Notes: generated by a model not told the origin, from the letters alone. DNA of 64,000 nt from an uncultured Hyphomicrobiales bacterium (GCA_964524325.1 CAZGCT010000001.1:97482-161481), one strand, 5' to 3'; shown: positions 4,293-64,000, counted from the first letter of the stretch. Translations and numbers: made by a program.

Positions 4293-4294
4293 AG

Positions 4295-41646: not shown

Positions 41647-41669
41647 TTTTGTCTCCTTAAAATTAAAAA

Positions 41670-42827: not shown

Positions 42828-42835
42828 ATTTTTGA

Positions 42836-43813
42836 TTAAACACTATTAATTTCACTTGAATTGCCTACATTGATTTTGAAAAATGTGCCTTTTACCACAG
42901 CATTGTTCCCTACAATGGATTGTTCCAACAAGTATGATTCAACTCTTGCTTCGTCGCTAATAATTGAATCTCGTACAACGCTATCTTTTACAATTGCACC
43001 ACAAGCAACAGTTGTGTAAGGTCCTACAACAGAGTTAATTACTTCTGCCTTGTCATCAATAAAAACAGGAGGAATAATCACGCTTCCTTGTATATTTCTA
43101 AAGTATGGGTTTTTCGAAAGTAAAAACCTATTGGTTTGAAGCAATGTTTCGGGTTTCCCACAATCAAACCAACCATCAACCGTAAAAGTCCTAAATTTTT
43201 CTCCTTTATTAAGCATTAATTGTAGTGCATCTGTTAGCTGAAATTCACCTTTGGTTTTTATTTGTCTTTGCAAAAGTTCATCAAGGGATTCTTTTAGTAA
43301 ATTGGAATTCTTTATGTAATAAATACCAACAATTGCCATATCGGAGACGAATGTTTCTGGTTTTTCAACCAATTGACTAATATATCCGTCGGGGTTTGTG
43401 ATTACAACCCCAAATCTTTCGGGATTTGGTACTTGTTTCACACCAAGCGTTGAAATATCAAAATTCATCACTTGGTTAAGGTCAGCATCGAAAATTGTAT
43501 CCCCGAGCACAATAAGCAAAGGGTCGTTTTGAAAGAATTCAGAAGCACACCAAATTGCATGCCCCAAGCCTAAAGGTTCAGTCTGAGATACAAAATTAAT
43601 GTCGAGATTATATTTCGAGCGGACGAACTTCTCTATGTCATCCCCAAGGTGCCCTGTAACAACAACAAATTTGTCGATACCAACGGATATAAGTGAATCA
43701 AGTATGTGTTGTAATATTGGCTTCCCAGCAACATTCAGTAATACTTTGGGAAGAAAATAAGTGTGTGGTCGTAACCTGCTTCCAATGCCTGCAACTGGAA
43801 TTACTGCTAACAT
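42836..43813 (-). CDS. NDP-sugar pyrophosphorylase (nucleotidyltransferase domain plus C-terminal left-handed beta-helix)
   Basis: 325 aa. [24 protein letters not shown] (GxGxRL sugar-1-P nucleotidyltransferase motif). Hexapeptide repeats at the C-terminus. Confidence 0.65.
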
Positions 43814-48202: not shown

Positions 48203-49173
48203 AAGCCAATAGAAATACCTAATCCAAAAATTTCTTTAAATTGGGTTCTTGGTCCGTAAGTATCGAATTTCCCATCACCATCGGTGTCCATAGGGATCTT
48301 TACATTATCATCGTAAATCAATTGTGTAGTTAAATTAATTGAGATAATTTTATTTACCTTAAACAAAATAACATTTTCCCAATTCACATCAATGTTTTGC
48401 GGTTTATTCAGAAAGTCAGAAAACAATTCAATTTTTGAAGTCACCATAATATTTTTAAGTAGCTCTATTTCGAAATCTTTCTTGTTAAAAAAGAACCGAA
48501 GGAAGCCACCAAATTCTTTTTTGAATTTTTCACCTTGTTTTACTAATGTTCCAAGGGTATCATAAACGGCAGGCTTAACCCCAAAGGCACCTTTGTTGGC
48601 AAGTTCTTGATCGTTAACATAGGTTATTCGTCCTGTAAATGGGGCGGCAAACAAGCTTAAAGTTGTATTTGGCTTCCAGTCAATCCCGAGAGCAGTAATT
48701 AAATATGCAGGTGAAAGAAGATTTGAAATTTTCTGAGTATCTTTTGAATAATTCCACCCAACTGTCATTTGTGTTTTGAAGTTCAAAGCACCAGCAACAA
48801 AAAAATTGTTTCTAACTTGAATTCCATATTTTGAGGTTATTTCAAACTTGTCGTCGGTCTTGATAAATCTTTTGCTTTCTCCTTGTTGTAGCAAACCATA
48901 GCCGATGTCTAAGTTGTTATCCCAAACAGAACTTTTGTCTTTGTAACTGGCAAACATACTTAGGAAACCCTGAATTGAAACAGAATTCTGACCACCTGCA
49001 GCCCAATTTGTAAGAGAAGTTTGAGCGAGGTTAACATTGATTAACCCGCCTTTTTTCCAGCCTATGGTGTCTGCTTTTGTCCCTTTCTGAATGATAGCTT
49101 CTGCTTCTTTTACTTGTGAATAAGTAATAGAGGTTAAGAAAATAAAAAACAATGAAAATAAAATCTTTTCCAT
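48199..49173 (-). CDS. Hypothetical outer-membrane beta-barrel protein
   Basis: 324 aa. Signal peptide MEKILFSLFFIFLTSITYSQ. Alternating amphipathic beta-strand pattern and a C-terminal aromatic residue (ISIGF). Confidence 0.4.
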   Translation of the reverse strand: MEKILFSLFFIFLTSITYSQVKEAEAIIQKGTKADTIGWKKGGLINVNLAQTSLTNWAAGGQNSVSIQGFLSMFASYKDKSSVWDNNLDIGYGLLQQGESKRFIKTDDKFEITSKYGIQVRNNFFVAGALNFKTQMTVGWNYSKDTQKISNLLSPAYLITALGIDWKPNTTLSLFAAPFTGRITYVNDQELANKGAFGVKPAVYDTLGTLVKQGEKFKKEFGGFLRFFFNKKDFEIELLKNIMVTSKIELFSDFLNKPQNIDVNWENVILFKVNKIISINLTTQLIYDDNVKIPMDTDGDGKFDTYGPRTQFKEIFGLGISIGF

Positions 49174-49208
49174 TTTTGGACCTTTATTATTGAGAAATAG
49201 TAAATATA

Positions 49209-49991
49209 CTATCTATAAACTCCTCTTGTGGAGCTTTGGATAAAATCAATGCAATATTGAATTTCGGAAAGTATTCCGTCTGGATGGGTTTCAAGGTATT
49301 TTTTTATTCCATCCGAGTTGTTGTAACAAGAATGGAAAATCAAACGATAGAACGAATCAATTTCTTTAATCACTTCAGAAGAAAAGCCTCGGCGTTTTAA
49401 GCCTATTTTATTTATTCCATCTACTTTTGGTGGATTTTCGCCAACAAGAGTAAATGGAGCAATGTCCTTTGTAACTTTTACGTCGCCCCCAACCATTGCA
49501 TGTGACCCGATTTTGCAAAACTGATGAACTTTTACAACTCCACCTAAAATAACCCAATTTTCGATGTGGACATGTCCAGCAAGCTGGACAACATTTGCAA
49601 AAATATTATTGTCACCAATTCTGCAATCGTGGGCAATGTGTGTATAAGCCATAAACAAGTTATTGTTCCCGATTATTGTTAAGCCTGTGGTTTGGGTTCC
49701 TCGGTGAATGGTTGAATATTCTCTAATTTCGTTATTGTTGCCGATAATCACTTTTGTTTGGGAGTTATCGAATTTAATATCTTGTGGTTTAGTTGCAATG
49801 ACAACGCCAGGGTATAAGATACAATTTTTACCTATAATTGCACCATTTGCAAGATAAACATTAGAAATTAATTCGGTTCCTTCGTCGATTTGAACATCAT
49901 CTTCTACAATACAATAAGGTCCAATCTTGACATTATCTGAAATAACCGCTTTTGGGGAAATTATTGCTGTGGGATGTTGTTTTAACGCCAT
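49209..49991 (-). CDS. lpxA: Acyl-ACP--UDP-N-acetylglucosamine O-acyltransferase
   Basis: 260 aa. Hexapeptide repeats throughout and the LpxA-type C-terminal helical domain. Immediately downstream of lpxC-fabZ. Confidence 0.8.
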   Translation of the reverse strand: MALKQHPTAIISPKAVISDNVKIGPYCIVEDDVQIDEGTELISNVYLANGAIIGKNCILYPGVVIATKPQDIKFDNSQTKVIIGNNNEIREYSTIHRGTQTTGLTIIGNNNLFMAYTHIAHDCRIGDNNIFANVVQLAGHVHIENWVILGGVVKVHQFCKIGSHAMVGGDVKVTKDIAPFTLVGENPPKVDGINKIGLKRRGFSSEVIKEIDSFYRLIFHSCYNNSDGIKKYLETHPDGILSEIQYCIDFIQSSTRGVYR

Positions 49992-50000
49992 ATGCTCCCT

Positions 50001-51404
50001 TTATAATTGAATATTTCTATCAACAAGAGCAGCTTGAAGATCCGCTTCGGCTACTACTTGACCATTAACAGTGCTTACACCATGAAATTTGTAGGTATTG
50101 AATTTTTTACTAACGATTTGTACTTTCATAATTAATTGGTCGCCTGGGATAACTGGCTTTCTAAATTTTGCATTGTCAATTCCCATAAACAGAAGAAGTT
50201 TATTAGTGGCATCAACGGAGCTTAAAAGCAATAAACCTCCGGTTTGGGCAAGAGCTTCTATTAGCAACACACCTGGCATTATTGGTTTCTCTGGAAAATG
50301 CCCCATAAAGAAAGGTTCATTTATTGTTACGTTTTTTATGCCAGTAATTGTATTTGTTTCGGTATCAATATCGAGTATTCTATCAATAAGAAGGAAGGGA
50401 TATCTGTGGGGCATAATTTTGAGCAAACTAAAAATGTCCATTAAAGCATCTTTGCCTTTTTTCCCTTGGAGTTTAAGAAAAGGAAGCTTTTTCAAGTATA
50501 GGTTCCTGATTTTCTTAGCAAATTCTATATTGCTAGCATGTCCGGGACGGGCTGCAAGTATTTGTGCTTTAATTGGAACACCAATTAAAGCTAAATCGCC
50601 AAGCATATCGAGCAGCTTGTGCCTTGCTGGTTCATTTTTGAAACGGAGATTTGTTCCGTTTAAAACCCCACCTTTAGGTTCAGGTAGATGTTTGATCCCA
50701 AAAACCTTTTGCAAGTTCTTCAGTTCCTCGTCGTTTAATTCTTTGTCGATGATAACAATAGCGTTGCTAAGGTTTCCCCCCTTAATGAGACCATTTTTGT
50801 ACAATTCTTCAACTTCTGTAAGAAAGCAAAATGTACGAGCAGGGGCAAATTCAGTTAGGAATTCCTTCTCCAAATTAAAAACACCAGTATGTTGGCTTCC
50901 AAGGGTTGGAATATTATAGTCAATCATTACTGTAATTCTATAGTCATCAGTTGGTAGTGCCACTATGTCAACACCTTTTTCTTCGTTTGTATATCGGACC
51001 GTCTCATCTATAACAAAATATTCCCTTTCTGCTTCTTGTTCGACAATTCCTGCTTCGAGTAATTTTTCTGCATAAGGTAAAGCGCTTCCATCAATTACCG
51101 GTGGTTCTTTTCCTTTTAATTCTATTCGACAGTTGTCAATTCTTAGTCCAACCAAAGCTGAAAGCACATGCTCAACCGTTAATACCCGGACATCACCTAT
51201 TCCAAGGGTAGTTCCGCGAGATAAATCAACGACATAGTCAACTAAAGCAGGAATTTCTACGGGAGGGTCGAGGTCGACCCGAACAAAACGATAACCAAAG
51301 TTTTCAGGTGCAGGATGAAAAGTAATTGTCGTTTCTTCGCCAGAATGTATGCCAATACCAATTAGACTAACGGGTTTAGCAATTGTTCGTTGTTTCTTTT
51401 CCAT
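50001..51404 (-). CDS. lpxC-fabZ: Bifunctional UDP-3-O-acyl-GlcNAc deacetylase / 3-hydroxyacyl-ACP dehydratase (LpxC-FabZ fusion)
   Basis: 467 aa. The N-terminal ~300 aa match LpxC (IGIHSGEETT, HTGVFNL...). The C-terminal ~150 aa match FabZ hotdog (NEPFFMGHFPEKPIMPGVLLIEALAQTGG). Confidence 0.85.
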   Translation of the reverse strand: MEKKQRTIAKPVSLIGIGIHSGEETTITFHPAPENFGYRFVRVDLDPPVEIPALVDYVVDLSRGTTLGIGDVRVLTVEHVLSALVGLRIDNCRIELKGKEPPVIDGSALPYAEKLLEAGIVEQEAEREYFVIDETVRYTNEEKGVDIVALPTDDYRITVMIDYNIPTLGSQHTGVFNLEKEFLTEFAPARTFCFLTEVEELYKNGLIKGGNLSNAIVIIDKELNDEELKNLQKVFGIKHLPEPKGGVLNGTNLRFKNEPARHKLLDMLGDLALIGVPIKAQILAARPGHASNIEFAKKIRNLYLKKLPFLKLQGKKGKDALMDIFSLLKIMPHRYPFLLIDRILDIDTETNTITGIKNVTINEPFFMGHFPEKPIMPGVLLIEALAQTGGLLLLSSVDATNKLLLFMGIDNAKFRKPVIPGDQLIMKVQIVSKKFNTYKFHGVSTVNGQVVAEADLQAALVDRNIQL

Positions 51405-51474
51405 AAAATGAAAAGTAAAAATTAAAAAGAAACAAATTTAAGAAAATAAATTCTAAAATTGTAAGATCGAAAAT

Positions 51475-51501
51475 TAAAGTTTTCAAAAAACCAGTCGATA
51501 A
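51475..51501 (+). promoter_or_regulatory. Sigma-28 (FliA)-type class III flagellar promoter upstream of fliC
   Basis: TAAAGTTT (51475-51482), 11-nt spacer, GTCGATAA (51494-51501). Consensus is TAAAGTTT-N11-GCCGATAA. ~74 nt upstream of the fliC ATG, with GGAGG RBS at 51566-51570. Confidence 0.65.
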
Positions 51502-51575
51502 TTATAGTGAATTAGGAATTGTAGTGATCGGCAGGATGCCCAAGAATATTATTAACAAAAACATGGAGGTACACT

Positions 51576-52532
51576 ATGCCAACAGCAATTGCACAAGGTT
51601 CGAGGATACGAACCAACACACCTGCCGAAAACGCATATAATGCGTTGCAGGCCGCAAGCAATAACATTGCTCTTCGCCAGTTGCGATTGTCAACTGGAAA
51701 GCGAATCAACACGGCTGCTGATGATGTGGCTGGCTACATCACAAGTCGCGCGTTACAAGCTCGAAATGGTGCTTTGAAGAAAGCACTTCTCGCTGCAGGT
51801 GAAGCTATGAATGTAACATCTATTGCTCAAGATGCTCTTGATAACATTACTAATTTGTTGACCCAAATTAAAGATGCTGCGTCCCAAGCTTCCACTGGTG
51901 CTTTAGGTACTGCCGAAAAAGTTGCTCTTGCAAAAGCATCCTATCGACTAGCCCAACAAATTCAATTTGTTGTTGATTCAACAGTTTTTGGTGGGAAACA
52001 GCTCCTCTGGGGTGATTACTCTGGGACTTGGGCGATTGGTTTCTACGCCGATAACTCAATCTTGTCGATAGGGGTGGACTTGACAACTGGCAATACTGAT
52101 TTCAACGTTGCATCCAATAACTTTAATCTTAATGCAACAACAGCTGCAATTTCTCCTGCTGGATTTACAACCGATTTCGCTGGAGTTTCTGGACTTAGCC
52201 TGCAAAGCTTGGACACTGTTTCCGAATCCGACCTTGGTATTTTTGCAACTTCCGTGATTGCAACCACATTGACCAGCCTTGCTTATGCGATTGACAATGT
52301 TAATAAAGTTGCATCATACCTTGGAGCTATTCAAAACAGAATTAATTCTCACGAGGAATTGTTGAAATCCCAGATAACAAACTACAATGCAGCAATTTCC
52401 CGTATCGAAGATGCTGATGTTGCACAAGAGCAACTTGAATTGATTAAACAACAATTCTTGCTACAAGCTTCGCTGATTTCATTAACACAAGCAAATCAGC
52501 AACCGCAAGCATTCTTACAGCTTTTTAGGTAA
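51576..52532 (+). CDS. fliC: Flagellin
   Basis: 318 aa. Conserved flagellin N-terminus (ALQAASNNIALRQLRLSTGKRINTAADDVAGY) and C-terminus (NAAISRIEDADVAQEQLELIKQQFLLQASLISLTQANQQPQAFLQLFR). Short Ser/Thr-rich central region. Confidence 0.85.
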   Translation: MPTAIAQGSRIRTNTPAENAYNALQAASNNIALRQLRLSTGKRINTAADDVAGYITSRALQARNGALKKALLAAGEAMNVTSIAQDALDNITNLLTQIKDAASQASTGALGTAEKVALAKASYRLAQQIQFVVDSTVFGGKQLLWGDYSGTWAIGFYADNSILSIGVDLTTGNTDFNVASNNFNLNATTAAISPAGFTTDFAGVSGLSLQSLDTVSESDLGIFATSVIATTLTSLAYAIDNVNKVASYLGAIQNRINSHEELLKSQITNYNAAISRIEDADVAQEQLELIKQQFLLQASLISLTQANQQPQAFLQLFR

Positions 52533-52582
52533 TAGCCTAAATTGATATGCGTTTATCACCTAAACATATAGTTTTTCTACCG

Positions 52583-52620
52583 AAGGGATTCCAAGGAGGG
52601 GATCCCTTTGGTTTTGGTAT
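52583..52620 (+). terminator. Rho-independent terminator after fliC
   Basis: AAGGGATTCC-aaggag-GGGGATCCCTT hairpin (10-bp stem with one G.U), followed by TTGGTTTTGGTAT. Confidence 0.6.
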
Positions 52621-52657
52621 AAAATTTGCTTTTATTGATTTTTATCGTAGGTGAAAT

Positions 52658-53014
52658 ATGTCTCTTGCTACGCCTAACCCCGCAGTTTCCAAAGCTTATG
52701 GACTAAAGAAAGACGTGGGTATTCCTCAATATCTTGAACAAGAGGTTTTGTCGTGGTCGAAAGAAAAAGTTATTTTGAAAATGTACGATCTTTTTGTTGT
52801 AAGTGCTAAGAAAAAAGATATTAGTAAAATGAACCGAGTCCTTGCAGAGTTGATGGCTTCTTTGAATTTTGACTACGAAGATACTGCTACCAGACTCTAT
52901 AGACTTTACGAATATGTGCAAAGATTGGTTTTTCAGAAGAGATACGATGATGCAGCTTTTATCATACAAGAACTTCGCAGTGCTTGGAATCAAGCGTTCG
53001 AAATTGAAAAATAA
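52658..53014 (+). CDS. fliS: Flagellar export chaperone FliS
   Basis: 118 aa, all-helical. ILKMYDL...LNFDYEDTATRLYRLYEYVQRLVFQ...ELRSAWNQA follows the FliS four-helix pattern. Position matches the usual fliC-proximal location. Confidence 0.75.
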   Translation: MSLATPNPAVSKAYGLKKDVGIPQYLEQEVLSWSKEKVILKMYDLFVVSAKKKDISKMNRVLAELMASLNFDYEDTATRLYRLYEYVQRLVFQKRYDDAAFIIQELRSAWNQAFEIEK

Positions 53015-53026
53015 TTTAGGTTCACT

Positions 53027-54496
53027 ATGGCAGATTTAACTTCTAGTTTAGATTCCCTTAGTAATGCATTGGGTTCGTTGACACAAACTTCCGCTTCAAG
53101 CCAAACCCAGGCTGATTTGCTTGTTGAGGCATACAAAAGGACTCAAGCTGGAAAGTTAAATCAATTGAAAGATAAAAAAAGTTCCCTTGAAAAAAAGAGC
53201 TCATTTTTTTCTTCGTTAAGGTCCAAAATTAATACTCTTGTCTCTCAAATCGATAAATTTAACACTACAGAATCCTCGAGTTTATTTATTGCACGAAAAG
53301 TAACTTCATCTGATTCTTCTATTGTCAATGCTACAGCAACCGGAGATGCTTTGCTTGGAATAAATTCGATAAAAGTTAACCGGCTTGCTTCAAATGATTT
53401 GTTGATTTCAGCACAGCTCAATGCCTCCCAGAATTTCTCTGTTTCTGGCTCAAATTTAACTTTTAAAATAAATAATAAAAATATTACTGTATCGATTGAT
53501 CCTGGTAAAACAAATGAAGAGGCTCTGAAACTTATTGCTAGTGCAATTAACAATACGTCAGATGTTAATGCAACTGCTTCTGTTGTTAAAGATACAAATT
53601 CTACTGTTAGGTTGACAATTACTGCAAAAAATTCAGGCTCGGAGAATAAATTAATTTTTGATGATAATGGTAGTGATGTCCTAAATGCCTTAGGTTTTAA
53701 TAATTTAGACCCAAACGCAACCGTTCGAACACCTGTTAACAGTGGGAATCAATATGCTCATTTCAAAATTGCTAACTCCTCAGAGTTGGATTCCGAGGCT
53801 GAAGTAAATGGAATTATTGTTGTCAAAAGTTCCAATAGTTTTTCTGACGTTCTTCAAGGTGTTACAATTAATATGCTTAAATCGCAGGGTATTAATGACC
53901 AACCTGTTACCCTGACAACCGAAGTGGACTCGAGTGCAGTACAAAATGTGATTAATCCGTTATTAAGTGCTTACAATGATATTCTTCGATTTATTAATAA
54001 TAATAAAAGTCTACTGCGCGATGAGCCATTGCTTAGAAATTTGGCTTCTAATTTACGGGCTATGGTTTCACAACCCGTGACCTCGACTCAACCCGGGAAT
54101 CCACAATTTTTAAGTGAAATTGGAATCAAAGTCAATTCTGATGGGACCCTTTCAATTTCCGATACCTCAAAGTTGCAAAAAGTTTTAGAATCTGATTACA
54201 AAAAGGTTTCAGATTTGTTCGTTTCAAGTGATAGTTTTGTAAACAAGTTAAATAATTTAATTGGATCTCTTTCAGGCGATTCTAGTTACATTACAAACAA
54301 GACCAGATTGGTCCAGCAACAAATCTACCAAATGCAGAAAAGGATAACTGAATTCGAATCGAAAATTGAAATTCAGGCGGAGAATTACAAAAATGATTAC
54401 TTTAGGAGTCTAGAAGCGTATTTAAAAGCACAATCACAATTTAATAGTTTTTCCAACACAGCAAGCACTTTACTAAATAGATATTATTCATATTAA
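53027..54496 (+). CDS. fliD: Flagellar filament capping protein FliD (HAP2)
   Basis: 489 aa. N- and C-terminal heptad/coiled-coil segments (KINTLVSQIDKF; QQQIYQMQKRITEFESKIEIQAENYKNDYFRSLEAYLKAQSQFNS) and a central beta-rich domain. Lies between fliS and flaG. Confidence 0.6.
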   Translation: MADLTSSLDSLSNALGSLTQTSASSQTQADLLVEAYKRTQAGKLNQLKDKKSSLEKKSSFFSSLRSKINTLVSQIDKFNTTESSSLFIARKVTSSDSSIVNATATGDALLGINSIKVNRLASNDLLISAQLNASQNFSVSGSNLTFKINNKNITVSIDPGKTNEEALKLIASAINNTSDVNATASVVKDTNSTVRLTITAKNSGSENKLIFDDNGSDVLNALGFNNLDPNATVRTPVNSGNQYAHFKIANSSELDSEAEVNGIIVVKSSNSFSDVLQGVTINMLKSQGINDQPVTLTTEVDSSAVQNVINPLLSAYNDILRFINNNKSLLRDEPLLRNLASNLRAMVSQPVTSTQPGNPQFLSEIGIKVNSDGTLSISDTSKLQKVLESDYKKVSDLFVSSDSFVNKLNNLIGSLSGDSSYITNKTRLVQQQIYQMQKRITEFESKIEIQAENYKNDYFRSLEAYLKAQSQFNSFSNTASTLLNRYYSY

Positions 54497-54513
54497 TTAT
54501 TTGGGGAGGAGAT

Positions 54514-54930
54514 ATGATAACCCCAATTGAAGGAACGCCAATTAATGAATTGCAAATAAACTTGCCCGAGTTTAGAACTTCACGCATTTCTTCTAACTTT
54601 AATGAATCAATTGAACAAGGGGGCAATCAAGGTAAAGGTTTAGAAAATTTAAACAATTTTGTGAAGAATATTAGCCAAGAGGAGACAAGGAAGCCCTATA
54701 AAGTTATTGATTACGACAAGATTGCAAAAAAGTTAGAAGAAATTATTAATGACAAAAGTTTAATGATTCAATTTACTCTGGATGATCAAACAAAAAAAAT
54801 GATTTTTAAACTTATCAATTCCGAGACAAAAGAAGTTGTTCAGCAAATTCCCCCAGAAGTTGCATTGAAAATTGCACGATATATTGCATCTACACTTGAG
54901 GATAAAAATGTTGCTAACGCTACAATATAA
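54514..54930 (+). CDS. flaG: Flagellar protein FlaG
   Basis: 138 aa. C-terminal MIQFTLDDQTKKMIFKLINSETKEVVQQIPPEVALKIARYIA matches the FlaG signature. Confidence 0.65.
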   Translation: MITPIEGTPINELQINLPEFRTSRISSNFNESIEQGGNQGKGLENLNNFVKNISQEETRKPYKVIDYDKIAKKLEEIINDKSLMIQFTLDDQTKKMIFKLINSETKEVVQQIPPEVALKIARYIASTLEDKNVANATI

Positions 54931-55279
54931 CCCTGAAGCCGTTGAAATACTAATTTCAAAAATAGAAAATTCTTCGAAAGAACTTAATGATTTGCTTTCT
55001 TCGTGTGATGATTTTTCATCGATCATCAACAAATTATTAGATATTCTTAATAATAGAGACATTTATTTCGAGGAGTTTCAAAATTTGTTAAATGAGGAAA
55101 ATTTAGGTGTTTACTTTCGAAACAATCATAACAAATGGCTCAGCAGAATAAAGAAAATAATGGAGCTGGAAAAAATTAATTTGGATATTATTGAAAAAAA
55201 TATGATATTGCAGAGTGATAAAGTTAAAGATTTAAATAGACAAAAACAGTTACTTTTGTATTTGAAGAGGCAAGTATGA
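54908..55279 (+). CDS. Small helical protein, possible FliT/FlgN-like flagellar chaperone
   Basis: ORF track starts at 54872. The in-frame ATG at 54908 (MLLTLQYNPEAVE...) overlaps the flaG end by 23 nt. ~124 aa, predicted all-alpha. Assignment is from position and size only. Confidence 0.3.
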   Translation: MLLTLQYNPEAVEILISKIENSSKELNDLLSSCDDFSSIINKLLDILNNRDIYFEEFQNLLNEENLGVYFRNNHNKWLSRIKKIMELEKINLDIIEKNMILQSDKVKDLNRQKQLLLYLKRQV

Positions 55280-55524
55280 ATGTAAAGAAAATCGGCAGTG
55301 AAGGTTCTGGTGTTTTCTCCGACATTAATTCACAGAATAAAAGAATCGGTGGTAATGCACAAAGCAATGCTCCTAAAATTACCGGCTCTTCCGATAAATT
55401 AGAGATCTCTACTGAAGCAAAAAAGCTACAAATTATCAAAAATAATATTGAAACTGGTTATTACAATCGAGAAGATATTGTCAAAAAAACTGCTTCGTAT
55501 ATTCTTTCTAAAACGCAACTTTAA
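55276..55524 (+). CDS. flgM: Anti-sigma-28 factor FlgM
   Basis: 82 aa. Disordered Gly/Ser/Asn-rich N-terminus, then a C-terminal helix SSDKLEISTEAKKLQIIKNNIETGYYNREDIVKKTASYIL resembling the FlgM sigma-28-binding domain. Confidence 0.6.
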   Translation: MNVKKIGSEGSGVFSDINSQNKRIGGNAQSNAPKITGSSDKLEISTEAKKLQIIKNNIETGYYNREDIVKKTASYILSKTQL

Positions 55525-55633
55525 TCATCTTTCAGTTTTTGGCATAAATTTTGACCTACCTTAATTTATTTCTTAGATTGTTCTTATTGTTTTAAGAATT
55601 TATTATTATTAAAGTATTACATAAGTAAATCAA

Positions 55634-57697
55634 ATGGTTAAAATAGTTGAAATTTTAACATTTTATCCTGAATATCTAGAATTTTTCTATGATAAGTATG
55701 ATTTTGCATATCAGCTTCCCTATAATAATCAAATCGATTTGTTAATAAATGATGGTTTTGGTGCGGGTATTATCTTCACTCCATATCTGAAAGATTTCGG
55801 ATTTGAAAGTTATACCATTATTGCCAACAATTTTTTTTCGCAAAAAGCGTGGGCAAAAGAAAATAATCATTCTACTCCTAGTTTTTGTGATAGACCATTT
55901 GATTTTGAAAACATAGACTATACCCTGTTAAAGAGGCAAATTGAAAAACTTCAACCGGAAGTTATTTTTTTTGCGGATACAATTCACTTTCACCAACCGT
56001 TTATTGAAAGTTTAACCCATAAAGCTAAACTTATTGTTGGTTGGGGGACTGATAAAATACCTCGTGGTTTAAATTGGTCTTGTTACGATGTAATTATCTC
56101 GATGATTGATCAATGTCTGGAAAAAGCTAAATCACTTGGCGCAAAAAATACATATTATTTTGAGCCTGGTGCACCTGATTTTGTTTATGAAATTTTAAAA
56201 CATGAATCCAAAATATATGATGTTACATTTGTTGGTCAAGTTACAGAAGTACACAGCAAAACGGCCAGAATACTAAACCATTTATCCCAAAAGATTCATT
56301 TCTTTCAATCAGAATTCCCAAACATAAATATTGCCTATTATATCTTAAGTTATCCAAATCACCATTTACCACCCGGTATTGCTAATTTAAATAAAGGGAA
56401 GGTATTTGGCTTAGATATGTTGAAAGTTCATAGACAATCTAAGATTTGCTTAAACACTATAAATTTTGAAGAAGGGGCCAATTTCAGGTTGCTTGAAGTC
56501 ACTTGTGTAGGCAGTTTCTTACTTACAAACCATAATCAAAATGTAAACAGATATTTTACTCCTGGTGTAGAAATAGGGGTTTTTGAAAATGAGGATGAGT
56601 TAATTGAAAAAGTAATCTTTTACTTGAAAAACGAAGAAATCAGAGAAAATATAGCGAAAAATGGCTTTGAGAAACTCAAAAAAAAATTCTCTTTGCAAAA
56701 GCGGGCAGAAGAATTTTCTTATTTGGTCAAAAAATATATTGATGATAAAAAAGAAAATAAAAGACCAATTTCTAAACAAGCAATAGAAAAAAATCATACA
56801 TTTGTGGGTTCACCTATAGATGAATCCTTTAGTCCTCTGACTGGAGAACCATCAAAATTGATAACAACCTTTAGCAGTGAATCTATTATCGAAGGTTATG
56901 AAAAAGCATATAGTATGGACGTTGGTTACCTTTTTAAAAATCATTCAGAGGTAAGACTTTATCAATGTCCAATCACTAAATTACAGTTTTTTAGACCAAA
57001 GGAAATTTGCGGTGATGGGTATTTTTATAGCAAATTAAGTAGATTTCCTTGGTATTATAAACCCGATAAATGGGAACATAGAATTGCATATGATTTTATT
57101 AAACCCAATTCAAGTGTTTTAGAAATTGGTTGTGGACAAGGGTCTTTTTTAAAAAAATTAACTCAAAAAAATTGTTTTGCCGTGGGTTTGGAATTGGATA
57201 AAGGAATTTCTGAAGATTTAATTTATGACAAAATATATTTCGAATCAATTCAGGATCACAGCCGAAATAATTTAAAAGTTTATGATTACGTTTGTATGTT
57301 TCAAGTCCTTGAACACATACCAGATTTGAAAAATTTTTTGTTGTCAGCCATTTCGGTTACTAAAGATAATGGATACCTGATTGTTAGTGTCCCTAATCAA
57401 GACTCTTTTATAGCACTGGACAAATTTAACTTATTGGACTTGCCTCCTCACCATATGACAAGGTGGAAACCAGAAACCTTTCTTGCTCTCGAAAAAATAT
57501 TTCCTCTAAAGCTTATGGAAGTTAAGGTAGAGCCTCTTCAAAACATTCACTTTGAGTGGTTTAAAAATATTATGGCTTTATATGTTATGGATTCCAAAAT
57601 TTTGGACCAAATAGTTAAGATTTCGCAAGAAAAGCCATATTTAATCAAAGGCCATACATTTATTGGGTTTTTTAAAAAATTAAGTTATGAACCATAG
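55634..57697 (+). CDS. Two-domain enzyme: N-terminal CgeB-like/GT1-like glycosyltransferase domain plus C-terminal class I SAM-dependent methyltransferase
   Basis: 687 aa. Residues ~290-370 (LLEVTCVGSFLLTNHNQNVNRYFTPGVEIGVFENEDELIEKVIFYLKNEEIRENIAKNGFEKLKKKFS) match the C-terminal GT1/CgeB (Glyco_trans_1_2) region. Residues ~480-600 carry SAM motif I VLEIGCGQGSF and post-I/II motifs DYVCMFQVLEHIPD and NGYLIVSVPN. Confidence 0.6.
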   Translation: MVKIVEILTFYPEYLEFFYDKYDFAYQLPYNNQIDLLINDGFGAGIIFTPYLKDFGFESYTIIANNFFSQKAWAKENNHSTPSFCDRPFDFENIDYTLLKRQIEKLQPEVIFFADTIHFHQPFIESLTHKAKLIVGWGTDKIPRGLNWSCYDVIISMIDQCLEKAKSLGAKNTYYFEPGAPDFVYEILKHESKIYDVTFVGQVTEVHSKTARILNHLSQKIHFFQSEFPNINIAYYILSYPNHHLPPGIANLNKGKVFGLDMLKVHRQSKICLNTINFEEGANFRLLEVTCVGSFLLTNHNQNVNRYFTPGVEIGVFENEDELIEKVIFYLKNEEIRENIAKNGFEKLKKKFSLQKRAEEFSYLVKKYIDDKKENKRPISKQAIEKNHTFVGSPIDESFSPLTGEPSKLITTFSSESIIEGYEKAYSMDVGYLFKNHSEVRLYQCPITKLQFFRPKEICGDGYFYSKLSRFPWYYKPDKWEHRIAYDFIKPNSSVLEIGCGQGSFLKKLTQKNCFAVGLELDKGISEDLIYDKIYFESIQDHSRNNLKVYDYVCMFQVLEHIPDLKNFLLSAISVTKDNGYLIVSVPNQDSFIALDKFNLLDLPPHHMTRWKPETFLALEKIFPLKLMEVKVEPLQNIHFEWFKNIMALYVMDSKILDQIVKISQEKPYLIKGHTFIGFFKKLSYEP

Positions 57698-60600
57698 TAT
57701 TCAAAACATTCTGAAAAATATTCAAGATGAAAATCTTTTCGATGCGTACGACGCCCTAAGATATTTACAAAAAAAGTACACCGAGGACGACATTCTTAAA
57801 ATTTTCAATTTAATCTTTAATTTTCAGTATGCTAAGCAAAAAGTTCCAAATTTGAAACTTCTAAACCTCGGTTGTGGATACAATTACCATCCCGATTGGA
57901 CAAACGTTGATTTTATCCAAACAGGAGAAAATGTAATTCAATTCGATTTGACCAAAGGAATACCTTTCGAGGATAATTTATTTGATGTTGTTTACCATTC
58001 CCATCTCTTAGAACATTTTCCTAAAAGGTTTGCTCCTGTTTTTATCAAAGAATGCTATAGAGTTTTAAAACCAGGAGGGGTTATTAGGGTAGTTGTTCCT
58101 GACCTTGAACAAATAGCAAAATTATACCTCGAGAACCTTCAAATGGCTATAAAAGGAGATGAGTCGGCAAAAGTAAAATACGAATGGATTTTACTTGAAT
58201 TATTTGACCAAATGGTCCGAAATGTTTCCGGTGGAGAGATGTATGAATTCTGGCGACAGTATCCTTTGCCGTGCGAAGATTTCATATACCAACGTTTTGG
58301 ATTCGAAGCTAAAAAAGCAATAGAGGAAATTAGAAAATATGGAAATATTATCTCACCAAAAGACTATAAGTCAAGACAACCGGTATTTGAGACAAATCCT
58401 TTAACAATTGGCAGATTTCGACTTTCTGGAGAAGTGCATCAATGGATGTATGATAGATTTTCCCTTAAGGAATTACTAAGTCAGGCTGGTTTTGTGGAAA
58501 TCGAAGTTGTAAGTGCCCAAGTTTCTCGGATTCCTAATTTCGAAAAATATTTTCTTGATACAAACCCAGATGGAAGTATTCGTAAGCCAGATTCATTATT
58601 TATGGAAGCAGTTAAACCAAAAGACTTTGATGATAATACAAGTTTCTTTTTGAGTTCTAAAACAGAAAGTCCAAAAATTACTTCAACCTGCCTTCCCAAG
58701 GTAGTTCATCTTTCGGTCTGGGATAAGGGAGGCGCTGGACTTTCTGCTTTGAGACTTCATTTAGGATTGTTAAGATTTGGGGTGGATAGTAAATTTTTGA
58801 CTTTACATAAACATACTGATTCCCCTTCGGTATATCAAGTTGAAAAAAAGTCCTTTGCAAAAGACTGGGATTGGAATAGCTATATTTCAATATGGTATCA
58901 AAATTTAGATAAACAATATCCCAATCGTCTAACAGATTCTGAAATCTTTTCTTCAATTAAAGGTATTGCTGAGTTAAAAAATAATGAATTTATCAGAAAT
59001 GCGGATATTATTAATTTCCATTGGGTCTCTTCCCTTGTAGATTTCGAGGAAGATTTAGAAATTTTCAAAGGTAAAAAAATAGTTTGGACATTGCACGATG
59101 AGAATCCATTTACAGGGGGGTGCCATTACACATCTGGTTGCAATAATTTTGAAATTCAATGTAAATTATGTCCACAACTTAATTCTATTGTTGAAAAAGA
59201 CTTAAGTTTCGTTCAATTTTTTTTAAAATCAAATTTTATTGATAAAAACGATATTACAATAATCACACCCAGCAGATGGTTGCTTGAAAGAGTAAAAAAA
59301 AGTAAGCTTCTGAAAAATAAACCTGTGTTTAACATTCAATATGGTATCCCAACGGGCATCTTTCATGTCTATAATAAAGAAACATCAAGGAAGTTGTTAA
59401 ACCTACCTAGGGAAAGTTTTTTGATTTTGTTTGGTGCTGAGTATCAAAATAAAAGAAAAGGATTTCATTTTTTGAATGAAATATTAGCCAAATTGCCCGA
59501 AACAATAAATGGGCGAAAGGTTGAGCTTTTAGTTTTTGGTAACGTAGCATCCCCAATCAAACAAAGCAAAATACCAATTAATTATCTTGGTTTTATTGGT
59601 AATCAAACTGTGCTTGCGATGCTTTATTCAGCGGCCGATGCTTTTTTGATGCTTACTATGGAGGATAATTTGCCAAATACTGCCATTGAATCAATTTGTT
59701 GTGGTACTCCTGTTGTTGTTTTTGATGTTGGTGGTTTAAGTGATATTGTTGACCATAAAATAAATGGTTGGCTTGCAAAACCATTTTCTTTTGATGAAAT
59801 TGTTAAGGGAATAATATTTACGCATAATATTGATGATAATTCTAGGATATGTTTTTCTAAGGAAGCGCAGGTAAAATTTGGTGATTTAACCCAAGCTTCG
59901 AACTATACTGAGTTATATAAATCTCTTATGTCGAGTTCCAAATTTCAAATGATTGGAACCCGTGCTTTAAATGATAATTTTAATTTTGATAAAATATCAG
60001 ATGACAATCAAATAATTTTAGCTTTTAAGAATTATCTTCAAAATTTCTCTGGTTTAGATATTAACACCTTTAAAGAAATTATCTCCTTTCGTAGGTTGTC
60101 AATTTCCACATACGTGAGCCTTTTTATTAGTAGGATTTTTTTCACATTTAATTTTGGAATTTCGAATATCTGCCTCGTTACTTCATTTGAAAGTCCCTTG
60201 AAACTTAAAATTTCTGATTCATTTTTCATGATATTTATTAACTCTACCAAAACTAATTTTGTTGAAGAGAAAAATGGCCAAAACTCTTCAATTATTGAAT
60301 GTAGTTTCGATAAAGTTCATGAGGTAATTACTAATTTACATCCATATGCGGTCTTTTTCTATCTCAATTTCGATGAATTCCTTTTATATCAGAACAAGTC
60401 GGAAAATAATTTAAGCGTTTTACTTAACCTTTTTGCAGATTTTCTAGTTTTCATTTTTTTAAAAATAAATTTGAAAAGCATTGATATGCTTAAAAATATT
60501 TTGCTTTACAGTCACCTTTTTTCGAGCGAAGAAGTCGATAATGCATTTGACCAGTTGGAAAATGACGACGACGAGTTATTAGTTGAAACAGAAGATTCCG

Positions 60601-61610
60601 AAAAATTTACCCTAATTACTCTGAAGTATGCTCCAAAAAATGTTTACCTGAGAAGGTTTAAAAATATTAATATTATTAAGAATTATCAGTATGAACTACC
60701 TAAGATTTCAATTGTAACACCAAATTATAACCACGGAAAGTATCTAGAAGAAAGTATTAACAGCGTGATTAACCAGAACTATCCTAACCTCGAGTATGTT
60801 ATTATTGATGGAGGTAGTTCTGACAACAGTCTTGAAATAATAAAAAAATACCAAAATTATCTTAGTCATTGGGTTAGTGAAAATGACAATGGTAACTATG
60901 ATGCGATAAATAAAGGGTTTAGCTTTGTATCCGGAGATATTTTGGCTTGGATTAATGCAGACGATTTCTATCTACCCGGTGCCTTTTATTTTGTTGCGGA
61001 ATTTTTTAATACTTTTAGTAAATCCAGTTGGGTTACAACATCAAATATTACTACAGTAACTAACTCGGAAATTCAACCAAATTGGGGAAATAAAAAGTAC
61101 AATTTAGATAAAATTATTTCTGGAAACTTTGACAAACCTTTTATACAACAAGAGTCGACATTTTGGACTAAGGAAATTTGGTCGAAAACCGGTGGTTATC
61201 TTAACACTAACTATAAAATGGCAGCCGATCTTGAACTTTGGATTCGATTTTTCCAAGCAACAAATCTCTACGTTCTTGCATGTCCGTTGGCTATATTTCG
61301 TATTCATTTTAATTCGAAAACTGGAAAAGATTTTGAAAAATATATGTTGGAAGGTTATCGGCTTATTGAAGAAAAGAAATCTTCAGTTAAAATTGATAGA
61401 GAATCTAATCAAGTAGGTAATGGCATTAACATTTCTTTTTTTGATTTTTGTGAAAAGAGTGGGTTGAAGATAATTGGACCACAACTTGGGAAAATAATTA
61501 ATGATTACGAAAATCTTCCTTATTATCCTAGAAACACTTTCGACAAAAGGAAAGTAGATAATTGGGTACAATTATTAAAATCATTGCATGAAATTTGGAA
61601 TCAAAAATAG
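57687..61610 (+). CDS. Giant multidomain methyltransferase-glycosyltransferase: SAM-MTase, GT4 (GT-B), ~230-aa uncharacterised hydrophobic linker, GT2 (GT-A)
   Basis: 1307 aa. MTase motifs LLNLGCGYNY, VVYHSHLLEHF, LKPGGVIRVVVPD (aa ~55-140). GT4: VVHLSVWDKGGAGLSALRLHLGLLRFG and EDNLPNTAIESICCGTPVVVFDVGGLSDIVDHKINGWL (ExFG-type). GT2: ISIVTPNYNHGKYLEESINSVINQNYPNLEYVIIDGGSSDNS...INADD (DxD). Starts 11 nt before the preceding stop. Confidence 0.65.
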   Translation: MNHSIQNILKNIQDENLFDAYDALRYLQKKYTEDDILKIFNLIFNFQYAKQKVPNLKLLNLGCGYNYHPDWTNVDFIQTGENVIQFDLTKGIPFEDNLFDVVYHSHLLEHFPKRFAPVFIKECYRVLKPGGVIRVVVPDLEQIAKLYLENLQMAIKGDESAKVKYEWILLELFDQMVRNVSGGEMYEFWRQYPLPCEDFIYQRFGFEAKKAIEEIRKYGNIISPKDYKSRQPVFETNPLTIGRFRLSGEVHQWMYDRFSLKELLSQAGFVEIEVVSAQVSRIPNFEKYFLDTNPDGSIRKPDSLFMEAVKPKDFDDNTSFFLSSKTESPKITSTCLPKVVHLSVWDKGGAGLSALRLHLGLLRFGVDSKFLTLHKHTDSPSVYQVEKKSFAKDWDWNSYISIWYQNLDKQYPNRLTDSEIFSSIKGIAELKNNEFIRNADIINFHWVSSLVDFEEDLEIFKGKKIVWTLHDENPFTGGCHYTSGCNNFEIQCKLCPQLNSIVEKDLSFVQFFLKSNFIDKNDITIITPSRWLLERVKKSKLLKNKPVFNIQYGIPTGIFHVYNKETSRKLLNLPRESFLILFGAEYQNKRKGFHFLNEILAKLPETINGRKVELLVFGNVASPIKQSKIPINYLGFIGNQTVLAMLYSAADAFLMLTMEDNLPNTAIESICCGTPVVVFDVGGLSDIVDHKINGWLAKPFSFDEIVKGIIFTHNIDDNSRICFSKEAQVKFGDLTQASNYTELYKSLMSSSKFQMIGTRALNDNFNFDKISDDNQIILAFKNYLQNFSGLDINTFKEIISFRRLSISTYVSLFISRIFFTFNFGISNICLVTSFESPLKLKISDSFFMIFINSTKTNFVEEKNGQNSSIIECSFDKVHEVITNLHPYAVFFYLNFDEFLLYQNKSENNLSVLLNLFADFLVFIFLKINLKSIDMLKNILLYSHLFSSEEVDNAFDQLENDDDELLVETEDSEKFTLITLKYAPKNVYLRRFKNINIIKNYQYELPKISIVTPNYNHGKYLEESINSVINQNYPNLEYVIIDGGSSDNSLEIIKKYQNYLSHWVSENDNGNYDAINKGFSFVSGDILAWINADDFYLPGAFYFVAEFFNTFSKSSWVTTSNITTVTNSEIQPNWGNKKYNLDKIISGNFDKPFIQQESTFWTKEIWSKTGGYLNTNYKMAADLELWIRFFQATNLYVLACPLAIFRIHFNSKTGKDFEKYMLEGYRLIEEKKSSVKIDRESNQVGNGINISFFDFCEKSGLKIIGPQLGKIINDYENLPYYPRNTFDKRKVDNWVQLLKSLHEIWNQK

Positions 61611-61619
61611 CACGCAAAA

Positions 61620-64000
61620 TGAATGATATTTTGGTTTCTGCATTGGTTTCGACTTACAATTCAGAGATATTCATTAAAGGATGTTTGGAGGACCTTGTAA
61701 ATCAAACTTTGTTTTCCAAAAGCCAATTAGAAATCATTGTTATTGATGCTGGATCCCAACAAAATGAAAGGCAAATTGTTGAAGATTATATTGCAAAGTA
61801 TCCAAATATTGTTTATTTAAGAACTCAAGACAGAATTCCACTTTATGCTGCTTGGAATCATGGCTTGAAAGTTGCAAAAGGAAAGTATATTACAAATGCA
61901 AACACCGATGACCGACATCATCCCGAAGCTTTAGAAATTTTAGCCAGTGAACTGGAGGATTTTTCTGAAGTTGCTCTTGTTTACCCCAATCAAATTATTA
62001 CAAGCAGTGAAAACCAGACTTTTGACAATGTAAAAGCCGAAGGCTATACCATTTATCCCCATTTTGATAGGCAGCACTTACTTCACACCACTTTCATTGG
62101 GCACCAACCAATGTGGCGAAAAGCTTTGCACGATGAATTTGGATTCTTTCGAGAAGATTTAAAAATAGCAGGGGATTATGAGTGGTGGTTGCGGATTTCT
62201 GAAAAATATCTTTTCAAACATATTCCACTTCTGTTGGGCATCTATTATTACAATTCTCAAGGGCTTGAACGCGAAAATTCAGATCTTTGCAGAATTGAAA
62301 CTTCACATGTGCGGACATTTTACCAATTGAAATCAAACAAGCTTGGCCTACAAAATTACTATAAGACTGTTTACTATGTTAGTAATTACATTGATTATTC
62401 TTCTATTTCCATACCTAATCCTGTGGTATCATTTATATTTATAGATGCCGACTATTCAGAAAATACTATAACAACGATTAATACTATATTGAATCAGACA
62501 TTCAACAATTTCGAAATCAAACTTATTTCCGATTCTAAATCTGAAATGAAATTAACAAATTACTTTAGGTACGACAAAAGGGTCGAAGTTGCCTCTTTTG
62601 GCGGGCATCCAAATATTGTGGAAAAAGCTTTTTTTGGATTAGGAAAGTCGAAGGGTAAATATATTTGTTTCCTTACTAAGTTTAATAGATTGTTTCCTAG
62701 GTTTTTAGAATTTAATATACAGCCATTTTTCTCTAACAATCATTTAAAGATCGTTTTTTTCAATTTTTTCAATGTTTTTCAAGGAATCCAAGACAAGAGA
62801 AATTATGAATTTGGTCGCAAACTAGTTGCAGTAAATGAATATTTTAAAGAGACTCATTCAGAAAAATTTAAATCGGGGGTATTTCCATTTGTGGCTCGAA
62901 AGGAAATTTTGACAAAAGAATTATTAACAACACTTTTTTCAAAACCAAAGGAAGCAATAAGTAGTTTCCCAAATTTTTATGTTGAACAAGCTTTACTTGA
63001 ACATTACAATTTTATAGAGGATCCAAAAAGTTCGATAAGGAAAAGTAGCTTCATTTATAGTAGTAACTCACCAAAAGTATCTGTGATAATCCCTTGTTAT
63101 AATCAAGGTTCCTTTTTAAATGAAGCAATTGAAAGCGTTGTCTGGCAAACTTATCAAGATTGGGAATGTATTATTGTTAATGATGGAAGCACCGACAATA
63201 CTCGGGATGTAGCATTATCTTTAATCGAAAAATACCCAGATAAAAGAATTTACTACCTCGAGAAAGAGAATGAAGGGGTAGCAATTGCTAGAAATTTTGG
63301 TATTTCCAAATCTAAGGGTAAATATATTTTACCTTTAGACGCCGATGATTTAATCCATCCTCTTTTCATTGAGAAAACTTCAACAGTCCTGGAAAACAAC
63401 CCCACAATTCACATTGTTTATACAGATGTAAAGCATTTTGGTGATCAAGATCGTTTTGTTCCTTCGCAGGGTTGGAACTTGTCTAATGAGTTATTTTTCA
63501 ATTACATTGGGATAACTTCTCTTTTTCGTAAGGAACTTTGGGATAAAGTAAAAGGTTATAAATCGGGGATTGGATTTGAAGATTGGGAATTTTGGATTAA
63601 TGCAATTGAAAATGGTTTTGTAGGTTACCACCTCCCCGAGCCTTTGTTTTATTATAGAGTTAAGCAGAAGAGTCGTTATAGAAATGATCTTTTAGAGGAT
63701 TCTGTAAATAAAGCCAAAATTGTCTTGCTCCACCCAAGGCTTTTTTCACAACAACAAGTAAATTGGGCAAATTTTGTTGTTTCAGAGCAATCTTACAACT
63801 TCCCATATAAGAATATACCAAACTTTGTTCCTCAATTCATTATGAGAAATTATAAAAAAAGCCTTTCAAATTTTAGGATACTTGCTTTGGTTGCTACTTT
63901 CAATGATGCAGATATTATCGAAAGTGTATTGAAAGATTTAATATCGAATGGTATTGATGTATTCATTATAGATAACGATTCAAATGACGATACTTTGAAG
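61620..64000 (+). CDS. Multi-GT2 glycosyltransferase, at least 3-4 tandem GT-A domains, 5' part (runs off window end)
   Basis: Not in the ORF track because it is open-ended. Manual translation from ATG 61620: MNDILVSALVSTYNSEIFIKGCLEDLVNQT...IIVIDAGSQ...NADD (GT2 #1, aa ~5-110). VSFIFIDADYSENTITTINTILNQTFNNFEIKLISD (degenerate GT2 #2, aa ~275-310). VSVIIPCYNQGSFLNEAIESVVWQTYQDWECIIVNDGSTDNT...LDADD (GT2 #3, aa ~505-600). ILALVATFNDADIIESVLKDLISNGIDVFIIDNDSNDDT (GT2 #4 begins at aa ~750). No in-frame stop through 64000. Confidence 0.65.

Follow-up and report, generated by a model that had tools for sequence, protein, structure and literature searches.

Genetic organization of the island

The DNA region analyzed here is a 64,000-nucleotide (nt) window of contig CAZGCT010000001.1 (positions 97482–161481; all coordinates below are counted from the first letter of the window). 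Its distal end is occupied by three genes, termed g1, g2 and g3, encoding large proteins composed of glycosyltransferase (GT) and S-adenosylmethionine-dependent methyltransferase (SAM MTase) modules. They lie downstream of a flagellar gene cluster and, as argued below, probably constitute a flagellin glycosylation island. The following open reading frames (ORFs) were mapped:

55634–57697, + strand: g1, ORF of 687 amino acids (aa)
57687–61610, + strand: g2, ORF of 1307 aa; stop codon TAG at 61608–61610
61619 to beyond 64000, + strand: g3, ORF of >793 aa within the window (ATG at 61619–61621; still open at the window end)

This map agrees with the original prediction, made from the nucleotide sequence of the window, of three contiguous co-directional genes of 687, 1307 and >793 aa with an 11-nt overlap between g1 and g2. 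The gap between g2 and g3 had been given as 9 nt (61611–61619), but the ATG of g3 is located at 61619, not 61620, which reduces it to 8 nt (61611–61618). The start of g1 lies 109 nt past a FlgM-like ORF and 3.1 kb past the flagellin gene. The genes had also been proposed to form a single transcriptional and translational unit; their tight, operon-like packing was evident, and co-transcription is presumed from it.

Antisense ORFs within the g1–g3 region are all short (62–95 aa). Since g1–g3 are ORFs of 2–4 kb in DNA of 31–33% GC, with domain matches at E<1e-17 and dozens of homologs, they are real genes and not chance reading frames. The GC content of the 54001–64000 region, which comprises the island and the preceding small ORFs, is 0.31–0.33, compared to 0.37–0.38 in the 50001–54000 region (flagellin to fliD). 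A low GC content is a trait common in horizontally exchanged glycan loci.

Domain architecture of the encoded proteins

Domain searches with hidden Markov models, complemented by structure prediction for the central part of g2, divided the three proteins into the following modules (Pfam positions and E-values in parentheses):

55634–56749, + strand: g1, N-terminal GT-B module, CgeB-like (Glyco_trans_1_2, aa 240–361, 2.8e-21)
56834–57697, + strand: g1, C-terminal class I SAM MTase module (Methyltransf_23, aa 483–594, 1.2e-17; motif VLEIGCGQG)
57687–58646, + strand: g2 module 1, SAM MTase, aa 1–320 (Methyltransf_11, 2.5e-10; Methyltransf_11/25 at aa 15–152)
58698–59936, + strand: g2 module 2, GT4 (GT-B), aa 338–750 (Glycos_transf_1, aa 564–711, 1.1e-17)
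59937–60695, + strand: g2 module 3, alpha/beta spacer with an MTase-like Rossmann fold in the predicted structure
60696–61610, + strand: g2 module 4, GT2 (GT-A) with an intact NADD motif, plus C-terminal tail (Glycos_transf_2, aa 1008–1116, 1.7e-24)
61619–62338, + strand: g3 GT2 domain a, NTDD motif (GT2, aa 7–158, 1.5e-24)
62402–63058, + strand: g3 GT2 domain b, degenerate, TKFN in the place of DxD (sub-threshold GT2, approximately aa 285–400, E 2e-3)
63065–63793, + strand: g3 GT2 domain c, DADD motif (GT2, aa 488–622, 4.9e-36)
63881–64000, + strand: g3 GT2 domain d, Glyco_tranf_2_4 type, first part only because the window ends here (aa 757–793, E 3e-3)

The inventory reported earlier (at least two SAM MTase domains, one CgeB-like GT, one GT4 and at least five GT2 domains) was thus confirmed. 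Both weak GT2 domains of g3 (b and d) exceed the Pfam cutoff in the 87%-identical ortholog encoded by Logan contig L081 (31 and 37 bits). The DxD motif is intact in four of the five aligned GT2 folds (NADD, NTDD, DADD and DADE); since it is replaced by TKFN in domain b of g3, this domain is probably inactive and may be regarded as a structural pseudo-glycosyltransferase. Domain c is the g3 module best conserved with Flavobacteriia (47%).

The MTase half of g1 is homologous to stand-alone MTases found in two related loci (L082 and L001, described below) and in a Tamlana locus (L008), while the MTase module of g2 (aa 1–320) shares 45–60% identity with many metagenomic homologs. Within the N-lobe of the g2 GT4 module there is a four-cysteine motif, GGCHYTSGC-x6-C-x2-CP (C479, C485, C492 and C495; 59121–59171), invariant in nine homologs of 40–88% identity, which possibly represents a zinc-binding insertion. 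A Pfam-negative stretch (aa 735–1004), the sole long part of g2 left unassigned, is also the least conserved section of the protein. No SAM motif was recognized in this spacer by inspection of the sequence and alignment and, given its predicted fold, it is probably a degenerate, non-catalytic MTase-like module.

No hydrophobic segments (19-mers) were detected in g1 or g3, and g2 contains only one (aa 909–927, within the spacer). The latter was rejected as a transmembrane helix, as it lies inside a predicted globular fold between two cytoplasmic-type GT domains. PDB sequence searches returned only generic GT2, GT4 and MTase matches (e.g. chondroitin synthase), and a match to GmaR was likewise only that of a generic GT2 (E 1.7e-6).

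Flagellar genes upstream of the island

The genes and signals preceding the island are as follows:

51475–51501, + strand: sigma-28 (FliA)-type promoter, TAAAGTTT-N11-GTCGATAA, approximately 75 nt 5′ of the flagellin ATG
51576–52532, + strand: flagellin, 318 aa (Pfam Flagellin_N and Flagellin_C), the proposed acceptor
52579–52612, + strand: terminator-like hairpin with a 14-bp stem, 3′ of the flagellin gene
52658–53014, + strand: fliS (Pfam)
53027–54496, + strand: fliD (Pfam)
54514–54930, + strand: flaG (Pfam)
approximately 54908–55279, + strand: small ORF, no family
55276–55524, + strand: FlgM-like ORF, 82 aa (Pfam FlgM, E=0.032)

The promoter, identified with the sigma-28 consensus, is the sole zero-mismatch site in the window. 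Because it is placed 5′ of the flagellin gene and a terminator-like hairpin with a 14-bp stem follows 3′, the flagellin gene looks monocistronic. The genes from fliS to the FlgM-like ORF (52658–55524) are all co-directional and closely packed with the island. No further terminators were predicted from fliS to position 58000, where the scan ended, which is compatible with an operon extending from fliS to g3. A second sigma-28-like site (TAAA-N14-CCGATAA, 55374–55397), within the FlgM-like ORF, was rejected as a g1 promoter due to its too short spacer.

Pfam matches bear out the earlier identification of flagellin, FliS, FliD and FlaG. The assignment of the 82-aa ORF as flgM could not be made firm: a four-sequence profile compared with PDB gave FlgM at E 5.7, i.e. 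no significant match, and the term “FlgM-like” was therefore kept. A DKLEIS...G.YN motif in this ORF is conserved in four orthologs.

The central segment of flagellin (aa 147–236) has a Ser+Thr content of 27.8% and contains no Lys. This composition fits O-glycosylation and speaks against FliB-type lysine methylation. Flagellins carrying methyl groups are known, and with two SAM MTases encoded beside the flagellin gene, these modules might methylate flagellin itself, the GTs then playing an unrelated role. This explanation appears most improbable. Apart from the lack of Lys in the central region, both MTases are fused to GTs, their homologs co-occur with TylF-type sugar O-methyltransferases, and the equivalent Clostridioides difficile fusion was proposed, on the basis of mutant glycan masses and a Pfam domain, to methylate rhamnose (PMC5207246).

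Conservation of the island in orthologous loci

The sequence past 64 kb was deduced from L081, in which g2 and g3 have homologs of 88% and 87% identity, respectively. The L081 g3 protein is 1240 aa long and contains four GT2 folds, all above the Pfam threshold, followed by a C-terminal TPR_19 domain (30.7 bits). As a convergent TMEM260-like gene comes immediately after g3 in L081, the island appears to be composed of only three genes. The earlier suggestion that sugar-pathway genes may lie beyond 64 kb is therefore unlikely to hold, at least as judged from this close relative. The nearest named relatives of g2 are encoded in metagenome-assembled genomes (MAGs) labelled Candidatus Kapaibacteriota (51%) and Ignavibacteria bacterium (48%). 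Word-indexed homolog searches, in which the taxonomic spread is poorly sampled, gave three matches for g1 and four, none of them informative, for the C-terminal GT2-TPR module of g3.

Five orthologous loci (L001, L081, L082, L083 and L084) were compared, most of which cover only part of the common backbone. This backbone consists of (i) DUF3078-lpxA-lpxC/fabZ genes (leftward), (ii) flagellin-fliS-fliD-flaG-ORF-ORF (rightward), (iii) the island and (iv) TMEM260-like-PTPS-queF genes (leftward). A g1-g2-g3 island of 43–56% identity is placed between the FlgM-like ORF and the convergent TMEM260-like gene in L001, L082 and L083; L081 and L084 are cut upstream and have the distal island boundary in common. 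The gene-neighborhood comparison proposed with the original prediction thus showed that the slot following flaG and two small ORFs is kept in three loci. Since orthologous islands hold this same slot, the link between island and flagellin seems stronger than mere adjacency.

The content of the slot is variable. In L082, g1 exists in separate parts, with a non-homologous 428-aa gene taking the place of the GT-B half. L083 carries inserted genes for an oxidoreductase, an ATP-grasp enzyme, a HAD hydrolase, an epimerase/dehydratase, DegT and AsnB. L001 contains inserted genes for a GT56, a formyltransferase, DegT and one extra MTase and has its modules split differently. Some of the islands therefore carry additional genes for sugar tailoring that are specific to their lineage (DegT aminotransferases, formyltransferase, ATP-grasp, AsnB, epimerase). 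Pfam analysis revealed no Wzx/Wzy, Wzm/Wzt, priming phosphoglycosyltransferase or ligase/oligosaccharyltransferase in the island of the window or in those of L001 and L081–L084; wzm/wzt and priming transferase genes are also absent from the 10-kb flanks of the orthologous loci.

The TMEM260-like gene (protein O-mannosyltransferase-like, GT-C), convergent with g3 and followed by PTPS and QueF genes, was found at the following positions:

L081: 8515–10365
L082: 17752–19593
L083: 17662–19524
L084: 8348–10198
L001: 12619–14502

Its presence next to g3 in all five loci raises the question of a general, Bacteroidota-type protein O-glycosylation, in which a glycan supplied by the island and built on a lipid carrier would be flipped and attached to many proteins in the periplasm, possibly by the TMEM260-like GT-C enzyme. 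Metaproteomics did assign oligosaccharides to multiple Ignavibacteria proteins (bioRxiv 10.1101/2020.12.03.409086). We nevertheless consider this explanation distinctly unlikely: the island lacks a flippase and a priming transferase, and the recurrence of related genes beside flagellin in FlbT/FlaF-bearing (probably proteobacterial) MAGs, described below, would be left unexplained. The TMEM260-like gene, on the opposite strand, belongs to the conserved backbone (59–65% identity, then PTPS and QueF) and probably merely marks the island boundary.

Comparison of the window with L082, derived from a Kapaibacteriota MAG, revealed 96% identity between the flagellins (51576–52532 and 3736–4692, respectively), compared to 77% for LpxA, 70% for DUF3078, 76% for FliD, 67% for FlaG and approximately 50% for g2 and g3. 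It is unusual for a filament protein to be more conserved than the adjoining housekeeping genes. Surface variation might be carried by the glycan rather than by the flagellin protein. The identity gradient was rejected as a sign of horizontal replacement of the island: the general level of identity to L082 is itself no higher than 70–89%, so the values of approximately 50% for g2 and g3 show faster divergence and not clear replacement, the exception being the N-terminal module of g1, with no detectable homolog in L082. With backbone and flagellin nearly identical and island content diverged or swapped, comparison of these lineages offers a clean natural experiment.

Related proteins adjacent to flagellin genes in other lineages

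Large proteins combining GT2, GT4, MTase and TPR domains (862–2260 aa), non-orthologous to those of the island, are encoded directly upstream of flagellin genes in Ignavibacteriaceae (L007), Melioribacter (L036) and an Ignavibacteria MAG (L170). In addition, an MTase-GT4-TPR homolog of g2 (43%) is encoded beside FlaF-FlbT and two flagellins in a MAG labelled Deltaproteobacteria (L088), and a g1-type fusion of Glyco_trans_1_2 and MTase domains (660 aa) beside FlbT and two flagellins in L113. Both FlbT-bearing contigs are probably proteobacterial.

In the first three lineages a GT2-TPR protein of approximately 500 aa is encoded immediately 5′ of flagellin:

L007: 20279–21781
L036: 12578–14071
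L170: 24163–25644

Among NCBIfam families, SunS-type peptide S-glycosyltransferases are the best match of the L007 and L036 proteins, though below the cutoff (E 1e-25 to 1e-27), and the GT2-TPR protein is a good candidate for a flagellin-directed transferase in these three lineages. The C-terminal module of g3 was considered as an ortholog of the L007 and L036 proteins and rejected, as only the generic GT2 N-terminus aligns (E 0.001–0.02) and the shared architecture alone is common. A relationship between the GT-B module of g1 and the Melioribacter TPR-GT was similarly dismissed, the similarity being not significant.

Predicted role of the island

The observed gene order, domain content, synteny and lack of membrane or export components point to the glycosylation of flagellin as the probable function of g1–g3. 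Flagellin as acceptor, one linkage per module, sugars as the target of methylation, a role for the TPR domain and co-transcription are inferences made in the following model. The three products would be soluble, cytoplasmic enzymes acting before flagellin is exported through the flagellar type III channel. Approximately six competent GT modules (one CgeB-like GT-B, one GT4 and four GT2) would each form one linkage of an O-linked oligosaccharide on flagellin, attached to Ser/Thr residues of its surface-exposed central region. The two SAM MTase modules would O-methylate particular sugars, either as decoration or as a chain cap, and the C-terminal TPR domain of g3 may dock the enzyme complex on flagellin in a FlmG-like manner, with the degenerate GT2 domain and the MTase-like spacer serving as scaffolds. 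Common nucleotide sugars, supplied by pathways encoded at other genomic loci, would serve as donors, and the island is probably co-transcribed with fliS, fliD, flaG and the flgM-like gene.

A flagellin-linked methylated glycan was also the product proposed in the original prediction. The conserved slot, the recurrence beside flagellin and the lack of export and priming genes in the islands agree with this proposal; the function itself is deduced, and the modules proved not to be flagellum-specific.

A more elaborate and quite unlikely version of this model would be a protein-primed assembly line acting directly on cytoplasmic flagellin, in which a long or repeating methyl-capped chain is made, the TPR domain acts as a clamp and the pseudo-GT and pseudo-MTase spacers set the chain length. 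By analogy, equally tentative, such a system might resemble the soluble polymerase/terminator complexes of ABC-transporter-dependent O-antigen synthesis. If it exists, Kapaibacteriota/Ignavibacteria would vary the filament surface via the glycan and not the protein, which fits the 96% conservation of flagellin compared to approximately 50% for the enzymes.

Several observations weigh against a flagellar role. (i) In the non-flagellated Tamlana (L008), a collinear MTase-GT4-GT2-GT2 block is present as separate genes within a surface-polysaccharide locus with sulfotransferases, NeuB, a cytidylyltransferase and a pyruvyl transferase. (ii) The majority of g3 relatives among representative genomes are found in non-flagellated Flavobacteriia, and MTase-GT4 homologs are frequent in non-flagellated cyanobacteria. 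(iii) Flagellin was not seen within 10 kb for four of the ten g2-homolog proteins whose contigs were read. (iv) The lipid A genes lpxA and lpxC-fabZ lie directly upstream of flagellin in the window. (v) The TPR domain of g3 is seen only in the orthologs, beyond the 64-kb window. (vi) No recognized flagellin-directed transferase was found in the island: the Pfam scan of g1–g3 contained no Maf domain, and comparison with the SunS-like GT2-TPR proteins of L007 and L036 revealed no significant similarity. (vii) Exporters could be encoded elsewhere in the genome.

In L171, a g2 homolog is encoded in a teichoic acid-like cluster. In L172 (1–16435), the MTase-GT4 protein P0015 (1056 aa) is part of a complete nonulosonic acid-type cluster (dehydratase, DegT, NeuB, cytidylyltransferase and a PseG/PseH-like fusion), with no flagellin within 10 kb. 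Neither Maf nor NeuB/PseB-type sugar pathway domains are present in g1–g3; among the flagellin-context and g2-homolog comparisons, NeuB occurs only in the distant loci L113 and L172. Taken together, the Tamlana block, the Flavobacteriia relatives of g3, the cyanobacterial MTase-GT4 proteins and the flagellin-free contigs suggest that these enzyme families are generic glycan-building modules, whose acceptor is assigned by context only. The occurrence of homologs in lipopolysaccharide or exopolysaccharide clusters, named earlier as a finding that would count against flagellin, was thus observed in part (the Tamlana locus and the g3 relatives in Flavobacteriia).

These data bear on a further explanation, namely that g1–g3 form a surface-polysaccharide module (O-antigen, exopolysaccharide or capsule-like) assembling a methyl-capped, lipid carrier-bound glycan, for which the priming and export genes would lie at other sites, with the flagellar adjacency being a conserved accident of gene order. 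The Tamlana block, the mainly Flavobacteriia origin of g3 relatives, the proximity of lpxA and lpxC-fabZ, and the L171 cluster are all in keeping with it, as is the combination of an MTase with multiple GTs, which is known from the lipid-linked glycan polymerases/terminators WsaE and Klebsiella pneumoniae O7 ORF6 (PMC2943079, PMC11231755). We regard this explanation as rather unlikely, since Wzm/Wzt, Wzx/Wzy, a priming transferase and a ligase are absent from the orthologous islands and their 10-kb flanks, the adjacency to flagellin recurs across lineages that share no backbone synteny, and TPR protein-interaction domains are fused to the enzymes. The g2 spacer (aa 735–1004) was also considered as a coiled-coil ruler and rejected, its predicted fold being alpha/beta and MTase-like, not an extended coiled coil.

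Comparison with characterized systems

If flagellin is the acceptor, the closest characterized parallel appears to be type B flagellin glycosylation of C. difficile. In that system three GT2-family genes (GT1, GT2 and GT3; CDR20291_0241–0243) lie downstream of fliC, and glycan assembly proceeds step by step in the cytoplasm on flagellin itself; the GT2 protein (PF00535 and PF08241) transfers two rhamnoses, which it has been proposed to methylate as well (PMC5207246). In terms of domain content, both loci have co-directional GT2-family genes after filament genes and a fusion of a GT with Methyltransf_11 (g2 contains PF08241 and PF00535), and ATP-grasp and aminotransferase tailoring genes follow in C. 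difficile, as in L083. The C. difficile enzymes, from a different phylum, are three mostly single-domain proteins, whereas the island encodes three polypeptides (687, 1307 and approximately 1240 aa) with seven GT folds including GT-B modules, two MTases, an MTase-like spacer and a TPR domain.

FlmG of Caulobacter crescentus, in which a TPR domain that binds flagellins is fused to a GT-B transferase (PMC7591256), resembles the island in architecture only: in both cases a TPR recognition domain is joined to a soluble, cytoplasmic GT encoded by a flagellar-linked gene, which in FlmG acts on flagellin. FlmG differs in having an N-terminal TPR domain, a single GT-B and pseudaminic acid as its sugar; in the orthologs of g3 this domain follows a GT-A array at the C-terminus, and nonulosonic acid genes are missing from the island.

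WsaE (Geobacillus stearothermophilus S-layer), K. pneumoniae O7 ORF6 and Escherichia coli O9a WbdA/WbdD are likewise soluble multi-module enzymes with an N-terminal SAM MTase and at least two GT modules (PMC2943079, PMC11231755), using one module per linkage and methylation as a chain cap. The corresponding combinations here are MTase, GT4 and GT2 in g2 and GT-B with MTase in g1. Those enzymes act on undecaprenyl-linked glycans and are encoded in genetic linkage with wzm/wzt and with genes for a priming transferase and for a ligase or oligosaccharyltransferase, none of which occurs here. WbdD and the O7 ORF6 terminator carry a coiled-coil ruler, which the g2 spacer lacks. The likeness to polymerizing O-antigen or S-layer synthases noted in the original prediction therefore extends to the combination of an MTase with multiple GT modules, but not to a ruler (the predicted spacer fold being MTase-like) or to wzm/wzt linkage.

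The Pseudomonas syringae and P. aeruginosa islands (fgt1, fgt2, vioM) are also located next to flagellin genes, direct an O-linked oligosaccharide (Rha-Rha-modified viosamine) and vary in content between strains, but consist of separate enzymes with a dedicated dTDP-viosamine pathway, modified viosamine biosynthesis requiring viosamine-island genes including vioM (PMC3927599); the enzymes described here are extensively fused, and their island lacks genes of a sugar-nucleotide pathway. Flagellin glycosylation islands commonly contain MTase and formyltransferase genes (PMC5109656).

The novelty first attributed to the fusions has to be lowered, since both a GT2-Methyltransf_11 fusion downstream of fliC (PMC5207246) and the TPR-guided transferase FlmG (PMC7591256) are known. 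Flagellin glycosylation islands, GT-MTase fusions and TPR-guided flagellin transferases are all established, and no new category of biology is involved; the locus is a heavily fused form of a known type of system in an unstudied lineage. A literature search found no published work on flagellin glycosylation in Ignavibacteria or Kapaibacteria. Should flagellin be the acceptor, no such system would have been described before from the Kapaibacteriota/Ignavibacteria branch of the Bacteroidota-Chlorobiota group, and this one would also be the most heavily fused, with approximately 3,230 aa in three chains (related loci encode single chains of up to 2,260 aa). Natural fusions fix the order and stoichiometry of GT and MTase modules, and are thus convenient for studying linkage-by-linkage logic and for glyco-engineering.

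Other genes of the window

The flagellar genes are preceded (47258–51404) by genes encoding a leucine-rich-repeat protein (314 aa), a DUF3078 protein, LpxA and an LpxC-FabZ fusion. Based on the distribution of LpxC-FabZ fusions, on the adjacent DUF3078 protein and on proteins with type IX secretion system (T9SS) tails in the orthologous loci, the DNA is presumably derived from the Fibrobacteres-Chlorobi-Bacteroidetes (FCB) group.

The window had been described as devoid of nucleotide-sugar genes. Annotation covering part of it identified one candidate:

42836–43813, − strand: NTP_transferase-family gene (sugar-1-phosphate nucleotidylyltransferase-type)

This gene is found together with those for S-adenosylhomocysteine hydrolase and SAM synthetase (40291–43813, − strand), 12 kb upstream. 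The SAM-cycle and sugar-activation functions grouped there are ones that the island would consume.

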